Shown here in pieces: positions 39,501 through 52,013 of a DNA stretch of 64,000 nt. The translations under genes were made by a program, and so were the position numbers. The DNA lies in NCBI GenBank assembly GCA_000997385.1, contig LCBT01000002.1, positions 6,315-70,314 on the forward strand, written 5' to 3'. Within the stretch, counting starts at the first letter, position 1; every line of letters starts with the position of its first letter. A model generated the notes under the pieces. It saw only the letters and a list, made by a program, of their open reading frames with translations, did not search any database and was not told the origin of the DNA. This DNA comes from Candidatus Daviesbacteria bacterium GW2011_GWA1_41_61. Its GTDB lineage: Bacteria; Patescibacteriota; Microgenomatia; Daviesbacterales; UBA10151.

Positions 39501-39821
39501 TCAGCGTAGTTTAGTGCCAGAGGTAACCTTGGAGATGGGTTTTATAAGGACAGGTTTACTACTGTCTGCTGCCAAGATCATCCCTTGAGACTGAAAGCCC
39601 ATCATAGTTCTAGGCTCCAAGTTAGTCACAAAAACAAATTGCTTTCCTACTAAAGCTTGAAGTTTGTACCATTGCTTTATCCCGGCTAAAATCTGCCTAG
39701 GGTTCTCTTCACCTAAATCTACCTTAAGTTTGATCAGCTTTTCTGAGCCTTCCACCTCTTCAGCTTCCAAAACAGTACCAACTCTTAACTCTACCTTAAT
39801 AAAATCATCAAAATTGATCAT
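39501..39821 (-). CDS. tRNA-binding domain protein (CsaA/Myf/EMAP-like OB fold)
   Basis: VGTVLEAEEV...KLKVDLGEE...GMIL pattern of the tRNA-binding OB domain. Confidence 0.5.
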   Translation of the reverse strand: MINFDDFIKVELRVGTVLEAEEVEGSEKLIKLKVDLGEENPRQILAGIKQWYKLQALVGKQFVFVTNLEPRTMMGFQSQGMILAADSSKPVLIKPISKVTSGTKLR

Positions 39822-41068
39822 ATAGCCCGTGATCTTATCATTAAAGCAAAGTTTTTCATCTCTGTTCGCATATATTCCCAGTCAGGGTTCATCTTTCTGA
39901 TTAATACTACTGATTCTAAAGGATAAACTCTACCCCCGTCTATATCAATACAAGACATCCAGTCCGTAATCTCTTCAGTTTTCTCCATGGGCGCATAAAC
40001 CGCCTTTAATTTGGATTGTAAATCTATGACATGCTCGGTCCGGAAATTAGCTTGACCACTCTTCTCCCTTCTTACAATCGGTAGATCTGTAAACCCAAAT
40101 ACCACCGGAAAGGGAGGCTCTGTCGAAGGAACAGGATTCAACATTAATTCAACTAGCTCCTCTTCTATCAACTTTTTTCTTTCTAACCACTCCCCTAAAC
40201 TATGCTTGGCACTATAATGACCATTATAAATCTCTTCCGGTCGGTCAAGAACACCCTGCCAATAACTTATCATTTGTTCTGTTTTAGCCAGTTGATCCCT
40301 TATCTTCTCCGGGCTCTGATGAAAATAGTCACAGCAAAGATCAGCATAAGTCTCGCCTGCCTCAAACCATTCACTTACAGATATCCCCTCGTTGGAGGCA
40401 ACTCTGGCGCTAGCGCCACCCTTTAATCCCTCACCAGTCCTTCTAGTAATACCTCTCTTCAACAATTCAGCACGAGAAAGAATTTTCCCTCCAAATTCCT
40501 CGATACCTGCTAAGGAAGTCGAGGATGTTCCCTGATAACTTTCTGACAAGAAACCATAGTTAGGGAGACGTAGTAACTCTCTTGCTTGTCTTATTATTTT
40601 TTGATCATTGCTATTCCCATTTTGCAAAGATTCCTGTTCCGCTCGCGCAAGCAAAGCGTCTATCACGATTTTTTGTAAACTAAGACTTTCTGTCCAAGCC
40701 ATCTCCCACTTTGAGGGCGTTCTCTCCCCAGTCCGAGGTTTATAACCCTCCCACCCAGGAGGTGATTCACCCCAACCTGGTGGGTTTGGCACTACTCTAT
40801 CCATAAATCTTCTTGTTAAATCCGCTAAATTATCTTCATGAATATCAAATTTGTCTGGAAAAACTGCAGCTAATCTTTGTAGGGCCAAAGAAATTTCCCG
40901 CCCATTAAAATCGTCATACTCCGCTTTGGTGATATCGCTATTAACTGCTGATAAATATAAACTAAATAAGAGATCAGCCTGATTGTGATTAAGGTCTTCA
41001 CTTTTGGAAAATTCCAGTGGTGTTAAGACTGAAGCTGATTGTTCTCTAGCCTCAACATCATTGTCCAT
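39818..41068 (-). CDS. hypothetical protein (416 aa)
   Basis: ORF only; PPGWGESPPGWEGY Pro/Gly/Trp repeat. Confidence 0.3.
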   Translation of the reverse strand: MDNDVEAREQSASVLTPLEFSKSEDLNHNQADLLFSLYLSAVNSDITKAEYDDFNGREISLALQRLAAVFPDKFDIHEDNLADLTRRFMDRVVPNPPGWGESPPGWEGYKPRTGERTPSKWEMAWTESLSLQKIVIDALLARAEQESLQNGNSNDQKIIRQARELLRLPNYGFLSESYQGTSSTSLAGIEEFGGKILSRAELLKRGITRRTGEGLKGGASARVASNEGISVSEWFEAGETYADLCCDYFHQSPEKIRDQLAKTEQMISYWQGVLDRPEEIYNGHYSAKHSLGEWLERKKLIEEELVELMLNPVPSTEPPFPVVFGFTDLPIVRREKSGQANFRTEHVIDLQSKLKAVYAPMEKTEEITDWMSCIDIDGGRVYPLESVVLIRKMNPDWEYMRTEMKNFALMIRSRAI

Positions 41069-42700: not shown

Positions 42701-42774
42701 TAGCAGGGGTGGGAGTCGGACCCACGGTCTAGGGGTTATGATTCCCTCGCTTTAACCAACTAAGCTACCCTGCC
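42701..42774 (-). tRNA. tRNA-Met(CAT) (elongator Met or Ile2/lysidine type; no encoded CCA)
   Basis: Cloverleaf GGCAGGG/CCCTGCT acceptor, D-arm GCTT..AAGC, anticodon loop AUCAUAA, and T-arm GTGGG-TCCGACT-CCCAC. Confidence 0.6.
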
Positions 42775-47616: not shown

Positions 47617-47688
47617 GTTGCGGGGGTTGGATTCGAACCAACGACCTTCAGATTATGAGCCTGACGAGCTACCACTGCTCTACCCCGC
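47617..47688 (-). tRNA. initiator tRNA-fMet(CAT), no encoded CCA
   Basis: CGCGGGG...CCCCGCAA acceptor with a C1·A72 mismatch. Near-identical to the E. coli initiator in the acceptor, D and T arms, with anticodon loop CUCAUAA. Confidence 0.6.
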
Positions 47689-47739
47689 GGTAACTTAGGT
47701 ATTATACACCCCCAGCTTGATTAATCAAAGCCCTCGATC

Positions 47740-48093
47740 TTACTTCCAGAACAACTTCATCCAGCCTTGCCAGTAGGGCTCTATAATTTTTTGGACCTCC
47801 TCCTTGACCCCTAAAACCTTATCTAGCTCTTCCTGAGGGATAATCACCACTGTCTCCCCTGCCCTGGACCAGCCTAATTTATTCCTGGTTTGCTGTTCTA
47901 TAAAAGATAAAGACTGAACCTCAGTTAACTTTTTTTTAAGTTCAGAATTTTTCTTCTCTAAGTTAACCAACTCTTCTGCCTCCTGCTCTAACCTGCCACT
48001 GACCTGTAATGACTCATAAATCTGTACTCCCAAACTGTAGAGTATTCCTATAATGAATATTAAAATTAAGACAATAAAGATTTTTTTAGGCAT
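47740..48093 (-). CDS. septum formation initiator family protein (FtsB/DivIC-like)
   Basis: N-terminal TM helix plus a coiled coil. ...KNSELKKKLTEV...EQQTRNKLGW matches the DivIC/FtsB pattern. Confidence 0.45.
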   Translation of the reverse strand: MPKKIFIVLILIFIIGILYSLGVQIYESLQVSGRLEQEAEELVNLEKKNSELKKKLTEVQSLSFIEQQTRNKLGWSRAGETVVIIPQEELDKVLGVKEEVQKIIEPYWQGWMKLFWK

Positions 48094-48201: not shown

Positions 48202-49071
48202 ATGGTTAGTTTATCAGATGCCAGACAACAATTTATCGGACACCTTAAAGGTAAAAGCCGCTCTTCAGCTACTATCTTAGCCTATGGCAAAGACATTGAG
48301 CAACTAGTAGACCATTTAAAGAAAGAGGGGGTCACTGATCCTTTAGAAGTCACCACAGACCAGATGAAAGACTTTATGGCTAAGTTGGCCAAAGAAGGGT
48401 ACACTCACAAATCCATCTCCCGCAAAACCAACTCTACTAAAACCTTTTTTAAATTTTTAAAAATTTCCGGGATTATTGAATCAGACCCGGCTACCGCCTT
48501 AGAACACCCCACCTTTGAAAATAAACCACCCAGAATTCTAACTAAATTGGAGTACCGGGCCCTCCGGGATGCTGCTCGGGGTGATATCAGGATGTCAGCT
48601 ATTATCGAGTTGCTGCTGCAAACTGGGGTGAGGATTGGCGAACTTTCTAAAATCACCACTCCCGATATTAACTTAGAGGAAGAAAACCCCACCCTTTATA
48701 TCCGACCCACGGAAGGATCTGTGGAAAGAACCATTCCTTTAAACAAACCTGCTGTTGAAATTTTAAAAAAGTACCTGGAGATCAGGCCAAAAACTCAAAA
48801 TAAAACCCTTTTTATTACCAAAACCGGCAGACCATTACTAGTTAGAAACATCAGAACGGCTATTGACCGCTACTTTAAATTAGCTGGCATTAGTGGGACT
48901 AAGGTCAATGATTTAAGACATACTTGGGTGACCCATCAACTGGCCTCAGGTATCTCTTTAACTTTAGTTTCTAAGATGGCCGGACACAAAAGAGTCTCCA
49001 CTACGGAAAGATACCTTCAATATATCCCCCAAAGAACTACTGAGGACAAAGTTAAACTAGAAGAACTTTAA
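48202..49071 (+). CDS. tyrosine site-specific recombinase (XerC/XerD/phage-integrase family)
   Basis: N-terminal SAM-like core-binding domain. Catalytic R...HxxR...Y: LRHTWVTHQL...GHKRVSTTERYLQ. Confidence 0.65.
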   Translation: MVSLSDARQQFIGHLKGKSRSSATILAYGKDIEQLVDHLKKEGVTDPLEVTTDQMKDFMAKLAKEGYTHKSISRKTNSTKTFFKFLKISGIIESDPATALEHPTFENKPPRILTKLEYRALRDAARGDIRMSAIIELLLQTGVRIGELSKITTPDINLEEENPTLYIRPTEGSVERTIPLNKPAVEILKKYLEIRPKTQNKTLFITKTGRPLLVRNIRTAIDRYFKLAGISGTKVNDLRHTWVTHQLASGISLTLVSKMAGHKRVSTTERYLQYIPQRTTEDKVKLEEL

Positions 49072-49076
49072 TCTTA

Positions 49077-49334
49077 TTAAACTGAGTAAACTAAGGTTCC
49101 TTCGTCTACTGGCTGGTCAACCTTAAGACCAAAAGCATCCCCTATCTTGACTTCCTCCACGAGATGATGTTCCACCTGAAGAGACTCTATGGTTTGGGTA
49201 AATTCTTCATCTCCCTTTTTAAATTTAACCTGTTGACCAACCTTTAAATTTCCCGAGTTTAGATCAATAATCGCCACGCCAAGCTTGTTGTAATAATGAG
49301 TAACCTTACCGATAGGACTGTCCAAAATTATCAC
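49077..49334 (-). CDS. hypothetical small protein
   Basis: ORF only. Confidence 0.25.
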   Translation of the reverse strand: MIILDSPIGKVTHYYNKLGVAIIDLNSGNLKVGQQVKFKKGDEEFTQTIESLQVEHHLVEEVKIGDAFGLKVDQPVDEGTLVYSV

Positions 49335-49362
49335 CTCCTTTGATGAGGAAACCGACCTGGGT

Positions 49363-49434
49363 GGGCGGACCAGGACTCGAACCTGGAACCAAGATTGTAT
49401 AAGAATCCCGCGCTACCATTGCGCCATCCGCCCA
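49363..49434 (-). tRNA. tRNA-Ile with anticodon UAU (TAT), no encoded CCA
   Basis: GGGCGGA/TCCGCCC acceptor, GCGC/GCGC D-stem, anticodon stem GGATT/AATCT with loop CUUAUAC (U33, UAU, A37), and T-arm CCAGG-TTCGAGT-CCTGG. Confidence 0.55.
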
Positions 49435-49463: not shown

Positions 49464-49667
49464 TTACTTCCTTAGAAAGTTAAAAAGTATTATTAAAAGC
49501 AGGGAAATTATCAAAGAGGAAGTTAGCGGTATATAAATCCTTACACCGTCTTTTTCTATTAAAATATCCCCCGGCAATTTAGGAAACTGTGGAGTTAAGC
49601 TCAAGATAAAACCCAAAAGCAGAAAAACTAAAGATAACAGAAAAAATATTCTACTGATATTTTCCAT
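49464..49667 (-). CDS. small membrane protein, DUF2905-like
   Basis: 67 aa, two TM helices, LPGDI motif. Confidence 0.3.
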   Translation of the reverse strand: MENISRIFFLLSLVFLLLGFILSLTPQFPKLPGDILIEKDGVRIYIPLTSSLIISLLLIILFNFLRK

Positions 49668-52013
49668 TTATAGTTTAGCTCTTTGGTTAATTTCTGCTTC
49701 CACCTCTGCCACATCCCGCCCATAGGTCAGCCTGGACAACTCCTTAATCGCCTGAGCTATCTCCGGTTTCTTCATGGCATTCCATGCCTTAAAATCAATC
49801 CCCACCTTCATGGAAAAAGGTGGCACTGGCTCTCCTTTAACTTGGGTTTTGACATAAACATTCCAAGCTTCAATATTAACTAGGTCTTGCTCGCTAAATG
49901 TTGGGGCAAATTCATGTTGTAAAAAGTTAGCATCGGTTACACCGATACGGAAAGATATTTGAGTCCCCACGTTCCCAAAGATGGCATTTTTAATATCCTC
50001 CGGCATCTGGCCGATAAATTGGTTGGCTACAATAAGATTTAATTTATACTTTCTGGCCTCAGATAAAATGGTGGCAAAGGTATCGGTGGCAAAATTTTGG
50101 AACTCATCAACATAAAGGTAAAAAGGGCGCCGCTCCTGCTCCGGTATATTGACCCGGGACATCGCTGCTGCTAATATCTTTGGTACCAAGACCAACCCTA
50201 AAAAGTTAGAGTTTTCCTCCCCCATCATCCCCTTGGAAAGATTGACAATTAAGATCTTCCCCTGATCCATAATCTGGCGGAAATTAAAAGAGGATTTTCC
50301 TTGACCGATGATATTGCGCAGCATCCGGTTGGTGACAAAACGGCCGAATTTAGAAACAGTATAGTCTAAAACCTCCGATTTATGAAAATCCGCGGTATGG
50401 GCAATTTGATCTGTCCAATAGCGGCGCACCACCGGATCAGTCACATGAGGCAAAAGCTCTTTGACAAACTCCGGATCCTGCATAATGCGCATTACCTCCA
50501 CAAAAGTATTTCCGGGGACAGCCATGACCGTGAGCATAGCATTTCTGACCCCGTGTTCAAAACGGGGGCCGATAATACCGGTTTTATTGGGATCGTAGAG
50601 TTTATACATTAAACCGATAATCTCAGCAGTAATAAAGTGTTTCTCATCTTCGGTTGAGGCTTCTAACATGTTCATACCAAAAGGCCTTTGGGCATCACCG
50701 GGGTTAAAATAAATCACATCTTTGGCCCGGTGCGGCGGGATTAAAGACAGCATCTCCTCGGCCGCGTCACCGTGAGGATCAACAAAAGCCAAACCTTTGC
50801 CGGCTAAAATATCTTGCAGCATCAAAGTCTTCATTAAAGTAGTTTTACCGGTACCGGTGCGTCCAATGATATACATATGTCTTTGGCGGTCTTCTTCAGC
50901 GATATAGACCGGTCTTTCCAAGCCCCTAAAGACAGATTTACCCAAGTAAAGCCCGGAGGTAGGGATCTTTTCCGAAGCTGGAGCAGCTCTAGCCGGTAGC
51001 CAAGTAATATGGGGAGTAGTAACTGATTTATTAGGAAAGTGATAAATAGTGGCAATCTCATCAGCTGTCAAAACCGGCAGCTTAGCAAATTTCGGCAGAT
51101 AGCGGTAGATTAAATCAGTCATAAAGCCTTTCTCGCCGGGAACCTTGGCTCCGGAAAAGCCGTTGTAAGGGCCGGAGAATTGTTCAAAAACCGCCTTAAT
51201 ATTTGACAGATGAGCTTTGGAGTTGTCTTTGGAAGTTGAAGAGATCGCTGCCCTTAAAACAACATTAAACCCCGGCCGGGCTAACTTCCCTTCCACTGCC
51301 TCCAGTTGTTTGGCATCAGGGGGAGGTTTGGGCGGACTGTCCGGTTTGCCCGGCTCTTTTTCTTTCTTCAGCCATTTTTTACCGCCATCTTTCCACTTAT
51401 TATCAGCTGGAGCTATAATCATCTGCAATAGCGCTCCCTCCTCTGGTTCCATCTTGGCCAAAGCTGCAGTTAAAGAAGAAAGTGGATCAGTGGGTAAATC
51501 ACGATAGGTTTTAAGCGGAAAATAGTTAGCAGCCCGCAGGATATATTGAGTATAAGCTGTTTGACCATCGTCGGTAAAAATATTATATTCCGGAACTTCT
51601 TTAATGGCGGCATCAGGGTAAGCGCCATGAATCTGCTTTTCGATTAGATCCCGCAACGATTTATGAACACAGATCAAGAAGCGGATTGACTCATGTAAAG
51701 CCACAATCTCAAAAGCAATCTGGGCTTGAGGTTGATGATTTAAAAAGCCAGTACTTTTTTTTATAGAGTAAAGGGCGGAGAAAAACTGCTCCATAGCATC
51801 AATTTTAATTTCGTTGTCCCGCGGTACCTCCACCTGTAAGATGACCGACTCTAAGGAGTATTTCTCCCGATCCCGGCTGCGGTACCAACCAACAATAAAG
51901 GGAACCAAAAAAGCCAGTCCTAAAATCACTACCGCCAAGACCACTAAGAGGATTATTCCTCCCGTGAGCAAATCTAATAAATCTGGTTGTGCAGCCTGAA
52001 CGCCAACTTCCAT
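49668..52013 (-). CDS. VirD4/TraD-like type IV coupling protein family ATPase (FtsK/HerA superfamily P-loop NTPase) with N-terminal TM anchor
   Basis: TM helix; Walker A IIGRTGTGKTT; Walker B LYVDEFQNF; LIVANQ...NVGTQISFR. Confidence 0.45.
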   Translation of the reverse strand: MEVGVQAAQPDLLDLLTGGIILLVVLAVVILGLAFLVPFIVGWYRSRDREKYSLESVILQVEVPRDNEIKIDAMEQFFSALYSIKKSTGFLNHQPQAQIAFEIVALHESIRFLICVHKSLRDLIEKQIHGAYPDAAIKEVPEYNIFTDDGQTAYTQYILRAANYFPLKTYRDLPTDPLSSLTAALAKMEPEEGALLQMIIAPADNKWKDGGKKWLKKEKEPGKPDSPPKPPPDAKQLEAVEGKLARPGFNVVLRAAISSTSKDNSKAHLSNIKAVFEQFSGPYNGFSGAKVPGEKGFMTDLIYRYLPKFAKLPVLTADEIATIYHFPNKSVTTPHITWLPARAAPASEKIPTSGLYLGKSVFRGLERPVYIAEEDRQRHMYIIGRTGTGKTTLMKTLMLQDILAGKGLAFVDPHGDAAEEMLSLIPPHRAKDVIYFNPGDAQRPFGMNMLEASTEDEKHFITAEIIGLMYKLYDPNKTGIIGPRFEHGVRNAMLTVMAVPGNTFVEVMRIMQDPEFVKELLPHVTDPVVRRYWTDQIAHTADFHKSEVLDYTVSKFGRFVTNRMLRNIIGQGKSSFNFRQIMDQGKILIVNLSKGMMGEENSNFLGLVLVPKILAAAMSRVNIPEQERRPFYLYVDEFQNFATDTFATILSEARKYKLNLIVANQFIGQMPEDIKNAIFGNVGTQISFRIGVTDANFLQHEFAPTFSEQDLVNIEAWNVYVKTQVKGEPVPPFSMKVGIDFKAWNAMKKPEIAQAIKELSRLTYGRDVAEVEAEINQRAKL

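Follow-up and report, generated by a model that had tools for sequence, protein, structure and literature searches.

The 64,000-nucleotide stretch of Candidatus Daviesbacteria bacterium GW2011_GWA1_41_61 analyzed here (contig LCBT01000002.1, positions 6,315 to 70,314; hereafter the window) encodes a tRNA-Ile with the anticodon UAU, and a gene for a Xer-like tyrosine recombinase lies beyond the 3' end of this tRNA. We consider it likely, with a probability of about 0.8, that the tRNA is a dedicated and inherited decoder of AUA codons which replaces tRNA-Ile2(CAU)/TilS, and that it belongs to a conserved block in which the Xer-like gene is a resident neighbour. The UAU tRNA would then be the only AUA reader, in place of tRNA-Ile2(CAU) and the lysidine synthetase TilS. 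The block would comprise tRNA-Met and, further on, tRNA-fMet, DivIC, the Xer-like recombinase gene, the tRNA-Ile(UAU) convergent with it, (DUF2905), and an ATPase gene resembling the coupling proteins (T4CP) of type IV secretion systems (T4SS). The tRNA of the window belongs to the already known bacterial decoding of AUA by tRNA-Ile(UAU). What is new is that this decoding is typical of large parts of the candidate phyla radiation (CPR) rather than rare.

The tRNA-Ile(UAU) gene and AUA decoding

The gene lies at 49362..49433 on the minus strand and is 72 nt long, with the anticodon loop CUUAUAC, A73 and no encoded CCA. It was recognized by both ARAGORN and the Rfam model RF00005; GGGCGGAUGGCGCAAUGGUAGCGCGGGAUUCUUAUACAAUCUUGGUUCCAGGUUCGAGUCCUGGUCCGCCCA gives the gene sequence, then CCCAGG. 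ARAGORN called three tRNAs in the window and assigned this one as tRNA-Ile with anticodon tat at 49358-49434 (-), a call that is longer than the Rfam span by an extra U at position -1 and CCCA at the 3' end. The full RF00005 model matched at 49362-49433 (-) with 66.2 bits (E 3.5e-12) and zero non-canonical pairs. An initial annotation of this DNA had already read the UAU anticodon and the CUUAUAC loop on the minus strand and had proposed ARAGORN as a check; both programs agree with it, and only its coordinates, 49363-49434, were shifted by one base. The minimum free energy fold of the tRNA alone is not a clean cloverleaf (z = -2.3), and the argument for a cloverleaf therefore rests on the covariance model and on covariation within the family. 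The tRNA-Ile(UAU) is genuine and has a canonical fold.

Related genes were collected from GTDB, with one genome per species, by a scan for a pattern consisting of a GGTAG D-arm, CTTATA at positions 32-37 and a standard T-arm. At least 120 tRNA-Ile(UAU) loci were found, and ARAGORN called tRNA-Ile(tat) at every one. Among the 120 loci listed, ~101 are CPR-like, 6 are archaeal and ~14 are from other bacteria, some of the latter within phage-like tRNA arrays. The labels of the listed CPR-like loci include Daviesbacteria, Levybacteria, Curtissbacteria, Collierbacteria, Beckwithbacteria and WS6/Dojkabacteria, as well as Paceibacteria/Parcubacteria groups, Magasanikbacteria, Uhrbacteria, Kerfeldbacteria and "Saccharibacteria". 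As matches also occur in archaea, phages and other phyla, the pattern is not specific to the CPR. The initial annotation had stated that genomically encoded tRNA-Ile(UAU) is known only from a few reduced bacteria, which fits the older literature, with 9 species from 3 clades in 2013 (PMC3575796) and 19 species in 2014; a further 371 unassigned tDNA-Ile(TAT) have been reported from metagenomes. The statement nevertheless understates the distribution, as the gene is common across many CPR classes.

Within this family, all 21 stem positions are paired in 94-100% of the 97 unique CPR-like sequences, and as many as 7 pair types occur at a single position. All 101 CPR-like members have A73, and the 3-70 pair is G-C in 81/97 and A-U in 16/97 unique sequences. 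G-C or A-U at 3-70 is a signature of tRNA-Ile, while C3-G70 marks tRNA-Met and tRNA-fMet (Silva et al., PMC1635315). The tRNA-Ile(UAU) family is under strong structural constraint with many compensatory changes, and is widespread in the CPR. Residue C38 (49396 in the window), which completes the CUUAUAC loop, is present in 84/101 CPR-like and 6/6 archaeal tRNA-Ile(UAU) genes, compared to 10/120 viral and 2/14 other bacterial genes (loci L011-L250 in all), and both bacterial cases seem to come from mis-binned CPR contigs. In other tRNAs, the strength of decoding is tuned through the 32/38 pair, and C32/C38 is therefore a candidate feature for decoding fidelity. The nearest sequences to the window tRNA are chromosomal orthologues in the same slot of related genomes (L050, L031). 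A viral origin was considered and rejected: IMG/VR contains many tRNA-Ile(UAU) genes, but among 120 viral ones sampled none was close, and none lay beside T4CP or Xer.

AUA is heavily used in the window, as the codon-usage check suggested in the initial annotation confirmed. Across 60 non-overlapping open reading frames (ORFs) it makes up 302 of 19,090 codons, i.e., 15.8 per 1000 and 22% of the isoleucine codons. A bacterial tRNA-Ile(UAU) encoded in such an AUA-heavy genome is, as had been pointed out, unusual compared to textbook bacteria. At 7 AUA positions in the recombinase and T4CP-like genes, the residues found in orthologues were I (0.32), V (0.25), L (0.16) and M (0.13). This profile resembles those of ATT and ATC positions, and ATG positions gave M at 0.43. 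The data, from a small sample, are consistent with AUA being read as isoleucine.

The other two tRNAs of the window agree with their earlier description. The only non-initiator CAU tRNA (42701..42774, minus strand) has C3-G70, A4-U69 and C11-G24, which marks it, on signature positions only, as an elongator-type tRNA-Met; it lacks the signature of a tRNA-Ile2(CAU). The initiator tRNA-fMet (47618..47689, minus strand) has C1xA72, A11-U24 and G12-C23, and has its own promoter-like and terminator-like sites. The criteria that discriminate initiator, elongator Met and Ile tRNAs were those of Silva et al. 2006 (PMC1635315). CCA is not encoded in any of the three tRNAs, as had been noted; the discriminator is followed by CCC in the tRNA-Ile, by CAA in the tRNA at 42701-42774 and by CUU in the initiator. 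Two structural details were also observed in these tRNAs. The anticodon stem of the initiator, UCAGG/UCUGA, is without the usual three consecutive G-C pairs at its base, and the CAU tRNA has GGG/CCC at 28-30/40-42, an A31xC39 mismatch and A32.

No SGGxDS PP-loop motif was found in any frame of the 64-kb window, and tilS was not found beside ftsH, its conserved place in other bacteria, in the window. A 416 aa ORF (39818-41068) was considered as tilS and rejected, having no PP-loop and no Pfam or NCBIfam match. It lies between the genes for a TrpRS/TyrRS-type synthetase and a tRNA-binding-domain protein, just upstream of ftsH, which is the spot of tilS in many bacteria; the ORF is missing from the matching position in two Daviesbacteria loci (L251, L254).

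At the level of classes, ARAGORN tRNA counts for 95 complete genomes were taken from a 2026 study of tRNA introns in Patescibacteria (PMC13011429, supplementary Table 2). At least two tRNA-Ile and at most two CAU tRNAs are found in 39 genomes, namely 12/12 Microgenomatia, 7/7 Dojkabacteria and 13/20 Paceibacteria, together with WWE3, UBA1384, Doudnabacteria, 2 ABY1 and 2 Gracilibacteria. The opposite configuration, with at most one tRNA-Ile and at least three CAU tRNAs, is found in 45 genomes: 29/36 Saccharimonadia, 7/7 JAEDAM01, Kazan, 5 Paceibacteria and 3 Gracilibacteria. These two complementary configurations cover 84/95 genomes. Both at least two tRNA-Ile and at least three CAU tRNAs are present in 10 genomes (7 Saccharimonadia, 2 ABY1 and 1 Paceibacteria), and one Paceibacteria genome (Ile 1, CAU 2) has neither configuration. 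At least three CAU tRNAs occur in 36/36 Saccharimonadia and 7/7 JAEDAM01, and a third CAU tRNA in 0/12 Microgenomatia. This complementarity is the pattern predicted if tRNA-Ile2(CAU) and tRNA-Ile(UAU) replace each other, and it suggests such mutual replacement within the CPR. The text of the paper is silent on UAU, TAT and lysidine (PMC13011429), and a literature search on the CPR with tilS, lysidine or AUA decoding found no paper in the library searched.

Many taxon labels of metagenome-assembled genomes (MAGs) are doubtful. Complete Saccharimonadia are all of the CAU type, and the "uncultured Candidatus Saccharibacteria" labels of the scan therefore probably reflect loose taxonomy. CPR-type tRNA-Ile(UAU) is also carried by contigs of MAGs labelled Bathyarchaeia, Gammaproteobacteria, Pseudomonadales, Acidobacteriaceae or Burkholderiales (L013, L021, L058, L059, L076, L094, L115, L119, L107 and L121), which are probably mis-binned or mislabelled CPR. 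Several of them also hold T4CP and Xer orthologues with 53-61% identity, and for those labelled Gammaproteobacteria or Bathyarchaeia the identity is 55-61%.

If the UAU tRNA is the dedicated AUA reader, its transcription would probably run on from neighbouring genes or start at a weak promoter-like site that lies within the DUF2905 gene. Its 3' end would then be processed and CCA added enzymatically. Judged from the identity positions A73, G3-C70 and C4-G69, IleRS would charge the tRNA with isoleucine; yet the window tRNA has G12-C23 in place of U12-A23. Pairing with AUA would take place through U34, and reading of AUG may be limited by the chemistry of U34, by the C32/C38 context, by the ribosome or by competition from tRNA-Met. 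The genome would be expected to lack both tilS and tRNA-Ile2(CAU).

Several points weigh against a dedicated AUA decoder. Lactobacillus plantarum and L. casei carry both AUA systems, and both at least two tRNA-Ile and at least three CAU tRNAs were counted in 10/95 complete Patescibacteria genomes (ARAGORN). For this organism, the evidence on tilS and tRNA-Ile2(CAU) comes from the 64-kb window of a genome of ~1 Mb. The UAU tRNA might thus be redundant or supplementary in a genome that also keeps tilS and tRNA-Ile2(CAU), as in the two lactobacilli. We regard this as quite unlikely, given that complete Microgenomatia lack a third CAU tRNA, that the sole non-initiator CAU tRNA of the window has the Met-type C3-G70, and that no TilS-like gene is present in the window or beside ftsH. 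Furthermore, the second "Ile" that ARAGORN reports in the table of complete genomes is taken by us to be UAU, and the comparison of AUA as isoleucine covers only 7 codon positions. The window tRNA is also an outlier of its family, with G9 (1/101) and the compensated pair G12-C23, where U12-A23 is found in 94/97. U12-A23 is an identity element of E. coli IleRS. The scan pattern was built from the window tRNA (GGTAG D-arm, C32, A37), so the enrichment of CPR loci is partly built in, and many MAG taxon labels are unreliable. Lastly, near relatives hold quite different alleles in the same slot, which means that the tRNA is not simply clonal in the clade.

The recombinase and its chromosomal neighbourhood

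The initial annotation had identified the ORF at 48202..49071 (plus strand, 289 aa) as a tyrosine recombinase, and this holds (PF02899 + PF00589, E 7e-32). PF02899 covers residues 9-87 and PF00589 residues 113-273, in the ~290 aa architecture of Xer. The XerD, XerA and XerC models of NCBIfam match over the full length at ~1e-47 (positions 2-273 of 290 in the XerD model), but the scores remain below the curated cut-offs, with 161.4 vs 329.6 bits for XerD, 160.4 vs 335.15 for XerC and 160.8 vs 220 for XerA. The closest solved structures are XerD (1A0P) and archaeal XerA (4A8E/5HXY). An identical protein at NCBI is named [quoted passage not shown], which places the window in the Microgenomates of the CPR. 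The unchanged sequence is found on at least 22 contigs, from metagenomes of Rifle groundwater and in GCA_000994095.1. Among 5.8 billion proteins searched, there was a continuum of ~289 aa relatives with 70-85% identity, many of them from Daviesbacteria, which their sources name XerC, XerD or tyrosine recombinase. A search of PHROGs with the recombinase was uninformative, as it matched only a generic family of integrases, and no more strongly or weakly than it matched the Xer models.

The catalytic residues were compared in an alignment of the window protein and 11 syntenic CPR orthologues with XerD and XerA. Arg-I, Arg-II, His-III and Tyr are kept in the 12 CPR members. The column of XerD K172 holds Glu in 10/12 members and Asn and Gly in the other two, and no conserved lysine is found in the hairpin, where the alignment is uncertain. 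His-II is replaced by Asn within an invariant KVNDLR(H/N) motif. Two of the six positions of the R-K-H-R-H/W-Y hexad are non-canonical in this family, and because the lysine column and His-II deviate, we call the protein Xer-like and not XerC or XerD.

The recombinase had been described as abutting the tRNA, which is not the case. Its stop at 49071 is 290 bp from the tRNA 3' end at 49362, and the interval is filled by a small ORF on the minus strand (49077..49334), which is 85 aa from a GTG and probably 82 aa from TTG 49325. The orientation was described correctly, as the recombinase reads towards the tRNA and converges on both the small ORF and the tRNA. The ORF has an AGGAGG ribosome-binding site and is called with 82 aa in several assemblies. 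It resembles weakly an EF-Tu domain-2-like beta-barrel (PF03144, E 6e-5, under the cut-off) and has tblastn homologues in L054 (47%) and L049 (38%). On the other side of the tRNA, just 5' of it, lies a gene for a small DUF2905 membrane protein (49464..49667, minus strand; PF11146, E 3e-14), whose position is shared with the Daviesbacteria loci L251 and L253. It is followed by the T4CP-like ATPase gene (49668..52013, minus strand), in which Pfam and NCBIfam find TraD/VirD4-like domains and which also carries DUF8128. This ATPase has tblastn matches in 20 loci, with orthologues of 43-73% identity beside tRNA-Ile(UAU) in ~19 of them. Residues 238-778 also match phrog_5156, a phage family without an assigned function (E 2.9e-89). 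On the 5' side of the recombinase lies a gene for a DivIC/FtsB-type septum protein (47740..48093, minus strand; PF04977), which adjoins Xer in L031, L050 and L251-L256, and precedes Xer at every Daviesbacteria locus examined.

The initial annotation had suggested that the tRNA could mark the edge of an integrated element or might itself have been imported. A genomic island, prophage or integrative and conjugative element (ICE) would then use the tRNA 3' end as its attachment site, with the recombinase as its integrase. A tyrosine recombinase 290 bp past a tRNA 3' end and a T4SS coupling-protein-like gene close by are what such an element would show. Recombinase and tRNA are separated by 4 to 1336 bp in relatives, with small unrelated ORFs in between, and fragments of displaced alleles are found there in L253, L254 and L043. 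Nevertheless, the check for a direct repeat that had been proposed was negative: a 22-mer from the 3' end of the tRNA (3 mismatches allowed) and a 16-mer (2 allowed) were found only in the tRNA itself within the 64 kb. Both flanks consist of ordinary chromosomal genes. The recombinase side holds DivIC, tRNA-fMet, a ZIP transporter, a TrpRS/TyrRS-type synthetase, a tRNA-binding-domain protein and FtsH, and the other side holds DUF2905, the T4CP-like ATPase and thioredoxin reductase. PolA and the isoprenoid genes GcpE and LytB are further ordinary chromosomal genes of the window. The T4CP gene is situated past the 5' end of the tRNA, so that an element inserted at the 3' end would not include it, and T4CP homologues are common on CPR chromosomes (5,713 in 2,918 genomes). 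There is no break in GC content at the tRNA/recombinase locus. Elsewhere in the window, GC is lower in the segment 24001-32000 (0.34-0.36 vs ~0.40-0.44).

Relatives within the Daviesbacteria, whose Xer is 70-78% identical, share the order DivIC, Xer, tRNA-Ile(UAU), T4CP, and a 1.1 Mb Daviesbacteria contig shows synteny with the window all the way from FtsH to thioredoxin reductase. T4CP followed by tRNA-Ile(UAU) and a convergent Xer (47-70% identity) is found in 8/10 Microgenomates/Dojkabacteria-type loci with enough flank, where the Xer stop is 7-729 bp from the tRNA 3' end. The core block of T4CP, tRNA and Xer reaches WS6/Dojkabacteria (47% identity for Xer), and in WS6 (L055) and in L113 the locus continues with tRNA-fMet and then tRNA-Met, just as it does in the window. 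The identity of the recombinase falls from 70-85% in Daviesbacteria to ~50% in other Microgenomates and 44-48% in WS6 and others, while its length stays at ~289 aa, which is the pattern of a resident gene. Recombinase, DivIC and T4CP keep their positions in relatives, the housekeeping flanks are syntenic there, and the nearest tRNAs are chromosomal orthologues. An island attached at this tRNA is therefore highly improbable and not supported, nor is an import of the tRNA supported for this window, and the neighbouring recombinase is better described as a resident, lineage-conserved Xer-like gene than as the integrase of an inserted element. The suspicion of a mobile element has some merit for the clade if not for the window, as the variable interval and the fragments of displaced tRNA alleles in relatives identify the locus as a hot spot there.

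Variable alleles and nested tRNAs in related loci

In Daviesbacteria relatives, the frame of DivIC-Xer and T4CP is fixed, while the content between the Xer stop and T4CP varies and includes unrelated small ORFs. Between the Xer stop and the 3' end of the tRNA lie 4 bp in L050, 25 in L043, 135 in L254, 278 in L253, 290 in the window, 728 in L031, 893 in L255 and 1336 in L256. Among Daviesbacteria with about 70-78% identical Xer, five unrelated acceptor stems occupy the same slot: GGGCGGA (window, L031, L050), GAAGCCG (L251), AGGCCCG (L253, L043), GGAGCTG (L254, L255) and GCGCCTG (L256). The corresponding tRNA-Ile(UAU) genes lie at 7222-7294 in L251, 5152-5224 in L253, 5003-5077 in L254, 5764-5836 in L255 and 6252-6324 in L256. 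The tRNA is on the opposite strand in L251, and it is likewise inverted relative to homologous flanks in L025 and L062.

Remnants of other alleles accompany some of these genes. In L254, an intact tRNA of the GGAGCTG type is flanked by two pieces of the window-type allele, one from its 5' part (3-33) and one from its 3' part (38-55). The 3' half of an L251-type allele is found downstream of the intact tRNA in L253, and the last 10 nt of the window-type allele downstream of that in L043. No flanking remnants and no extended stem were found at the window's own tRNA, which probably represents an un-invaded, older allele of the clade. The 596 bp interval from Xer to T4CP is identical across 10 independent assemblies, with no polymorphism among them, and a search for inverted repeats around the tRNA, as expected of an invertible segment, gave only AT-rich matches at chance level.

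The most unusual thing we observed lies outside the window, in related loci where one tRNA is nested within another. An intact tRNA-Ile(UAU) is placed on the same strand between the halves of a second copy that is broken in its anticodon. The outer 5' half comprises positions 1-35/37 and the outer 3' half positions 34-73, and TA or TATA is present at both junctions. Nested structures or single orphan halves occur in ~12-15 of the ~101 CPR-like loci listed. Nested loci from the GTDB scan are L025 (~1150-1450, tRNA on +), L071, L065, L122, L047, L012, L125, L063, L058 and L094, and nested or remnant loci from Daviesbacteria are L254 (4920-5150) and L253 (5046-5105). A dedicated scan of metagenomes added at least 27 nested examples among 120 matches listed, including L264, L268, L273, L280, L300, L303, L330, L358, L362, L363, L367 and L374. 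Doubly nested cases are L268, L367, L125 and L358. No nested structure was seen among the viral matches examined.

Across both scans, the acceptor strands of the outer copy are fully complementary in 11/16 unique two-half cases, and the outer allele equals the inner one in 4/16 and differs from it in 12/16. The insert is ~150-220 nt long, and the inner tRNA stands on a stem of ~13-20 bp made by its own flanks. The spacers that flank the inner tRNA are complementary (median z = -4, with 16/21 below -3), show compensatory changes between L071 and L065, and hold a conserved purine-rich internal-loop module of the GAGCGA type. Outer copies range from intact to decayed, with insertions in the D-loop or T-loop, mismatched stems and lost 5' halves. 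In displaced copies, insertions of 25-110 nt were seen exactly in the T-loop or D-loop, some of them perfect hairpins; such sites are found in the outer 3' half of L071, in L254 (4933-4965 and 5106-5131) and in L253 (5061-5087).

The nested loci gave no match to an intron, a ribozyme or another Rfam family, and they share no gene family; the Parcubacteria-type cases have no Xer homologue within 3 kb. Integron attC sites, IS630-type terminal inverted repeats and IS200/605 elements were considered and rejected, as the termini are not inverted repeats and show no R-box consensus. A literature search on nested or split tRNAs in the CPR found no description.

We put forward only tentatively, as an idea with the balance against it, that the tRNA-Ile(UAU) genes of the CPR are both target and cargo of a protein-less cassette of ~150-220 bp that inserts into the anticodon. 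Such a cassette would insert at UA/UAUA of the resident gene and deliver a complete replacement tRNA on a long stem beside the GAGCGA-type internal-loop module. Repeated insertion would give the nested loci and a fast turnover of alleles, including those of L254, L253 and L043. The window would then hold an un-invaded target allele, with the Xer-like neighbour, which has a non-canonical active site, as a candidate enzyme. Another possibility is that the insert is a bacterial tRNA intron of a new kind, from which a second tRNA would be released.

It might also be that the resident Xer-like recombinase acts on the tRNA-Ile(UAU) gene, exchanging or capturing cassettes and alleles, so that the locus would be a chromosomal platform and not the product of an island integrase. 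Stem-loops of tRNAs are classic targets of tyrosine recombinases, and the convergent pair of Xer and tRNA is kept in the 8/10 loci mentioned above. The variable cargo between Xer and tRNA, the unrelated acceptor stems at one slot with one inverted copy (L251), and the remnants of the window-type allele that flank the replacing allele in L254 and L043 would likewise fit such a role. However, nested and replaced tRNAs also occur in Parcubacteria-type loci without a nearby Xer homologue, and no protein family is enriched near nested tRNAs. The protein has no conserved hairpin lysine and Asn at His-II, which makes its catalytic competence uncertain; the 10 assemblies of the window's population are without polymorphism; and convergent 3'-3' junctions tolerate insertions anyway. 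A role of the recombinase in allele exchange is for these reasons unlikely.

Significance and comparison with known systems

Bacteria are usually described as depending almost universally on TilS and lysidine, which count as essential, and TilS-free decoding of AUA by a UAU tRNA has so far been regarded as an oddity of very few species. If dedicated AUA decoding by tRNA-Ile(UAU) holds across large parts of the CPR, including all sampled Microgenomatia and Dojkabacteria, a substantial share of bacteria would solve the problem of AUA and AUG differently. The class-wise alternation of CAU and UAU would provide a natural comparison for how the ribosome and IleRS tolerate U34. Genome annotation, the choice of TilS as a marker gene for the CPR and ideas about ancestral decoding would be affected as well. 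The practical outcome for the window is that the pattern of an integrase beside a tRNA is not an island boundary.

Compared to the tRNA-targeting integrases of islands, prophages and ICEs, the locus is similar in having a tyrosine recombinase gene near a tRNA 3' end. It differs in lacking an att duplication, an arm-binding N-terminal domain and mobile cargo, and in that the recombinase of the window is resident and syntenic across classes. The likeness to XerC, XerD and XerA lies in the two-domain architecture, the length, the full-length model matches and the best structural matches to XerD and XerA. Unlike these resolvases, the protein falls far below the equivalog cut-offs, its CPR family has Glu or a variable residue at the lysine column and Asn at His-II, and no dif site or GC-skew switch is found nearby in the window.

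The closest bacterial parallel is the tRNA-Ile2(UAU) of Mycoplasma mobile, which is likewise an encoded UAU tRNA-Ile in a small genome that uses AUA (PMC3575796, PMC1635315). In M. mobile, U34 is unmodified, the ribosome discriminates against AUG, and IleRS carries Arg865 (PMC3575796), at the position of W905 in E. coli. Such an Arg, or else an IleRS of the eukaryote type, is the adaptation to a UAU anticodon that would be expected of this type; the window itself contains no IleRS gene. The class-level tRNA counts argue that the UAU tRNA of the CPR, too, takes the place of tRNA-Ile2(CAU)/TilS. In contrast to the M. mobile type, the CPR trait spans many classes and alternates by class with the CAU system, and the CPR tRNAs have a C32/C38 loop in 84/101 cases. 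A further parallel is found in archaea without tiaS, such as Nanoarchaeum equitans and Korarchaeum (PMC3575796), where tRNA-Ile(UAU) replaces a system based on a modified cytidine in ultra-small or reduced organisms. The archaeal tRNAs belong to another domain of life with another synthetase and other modification machinery, but the six archaeal matches of our scan share the CUUAUAC loop with the tRNAs of the CPR.

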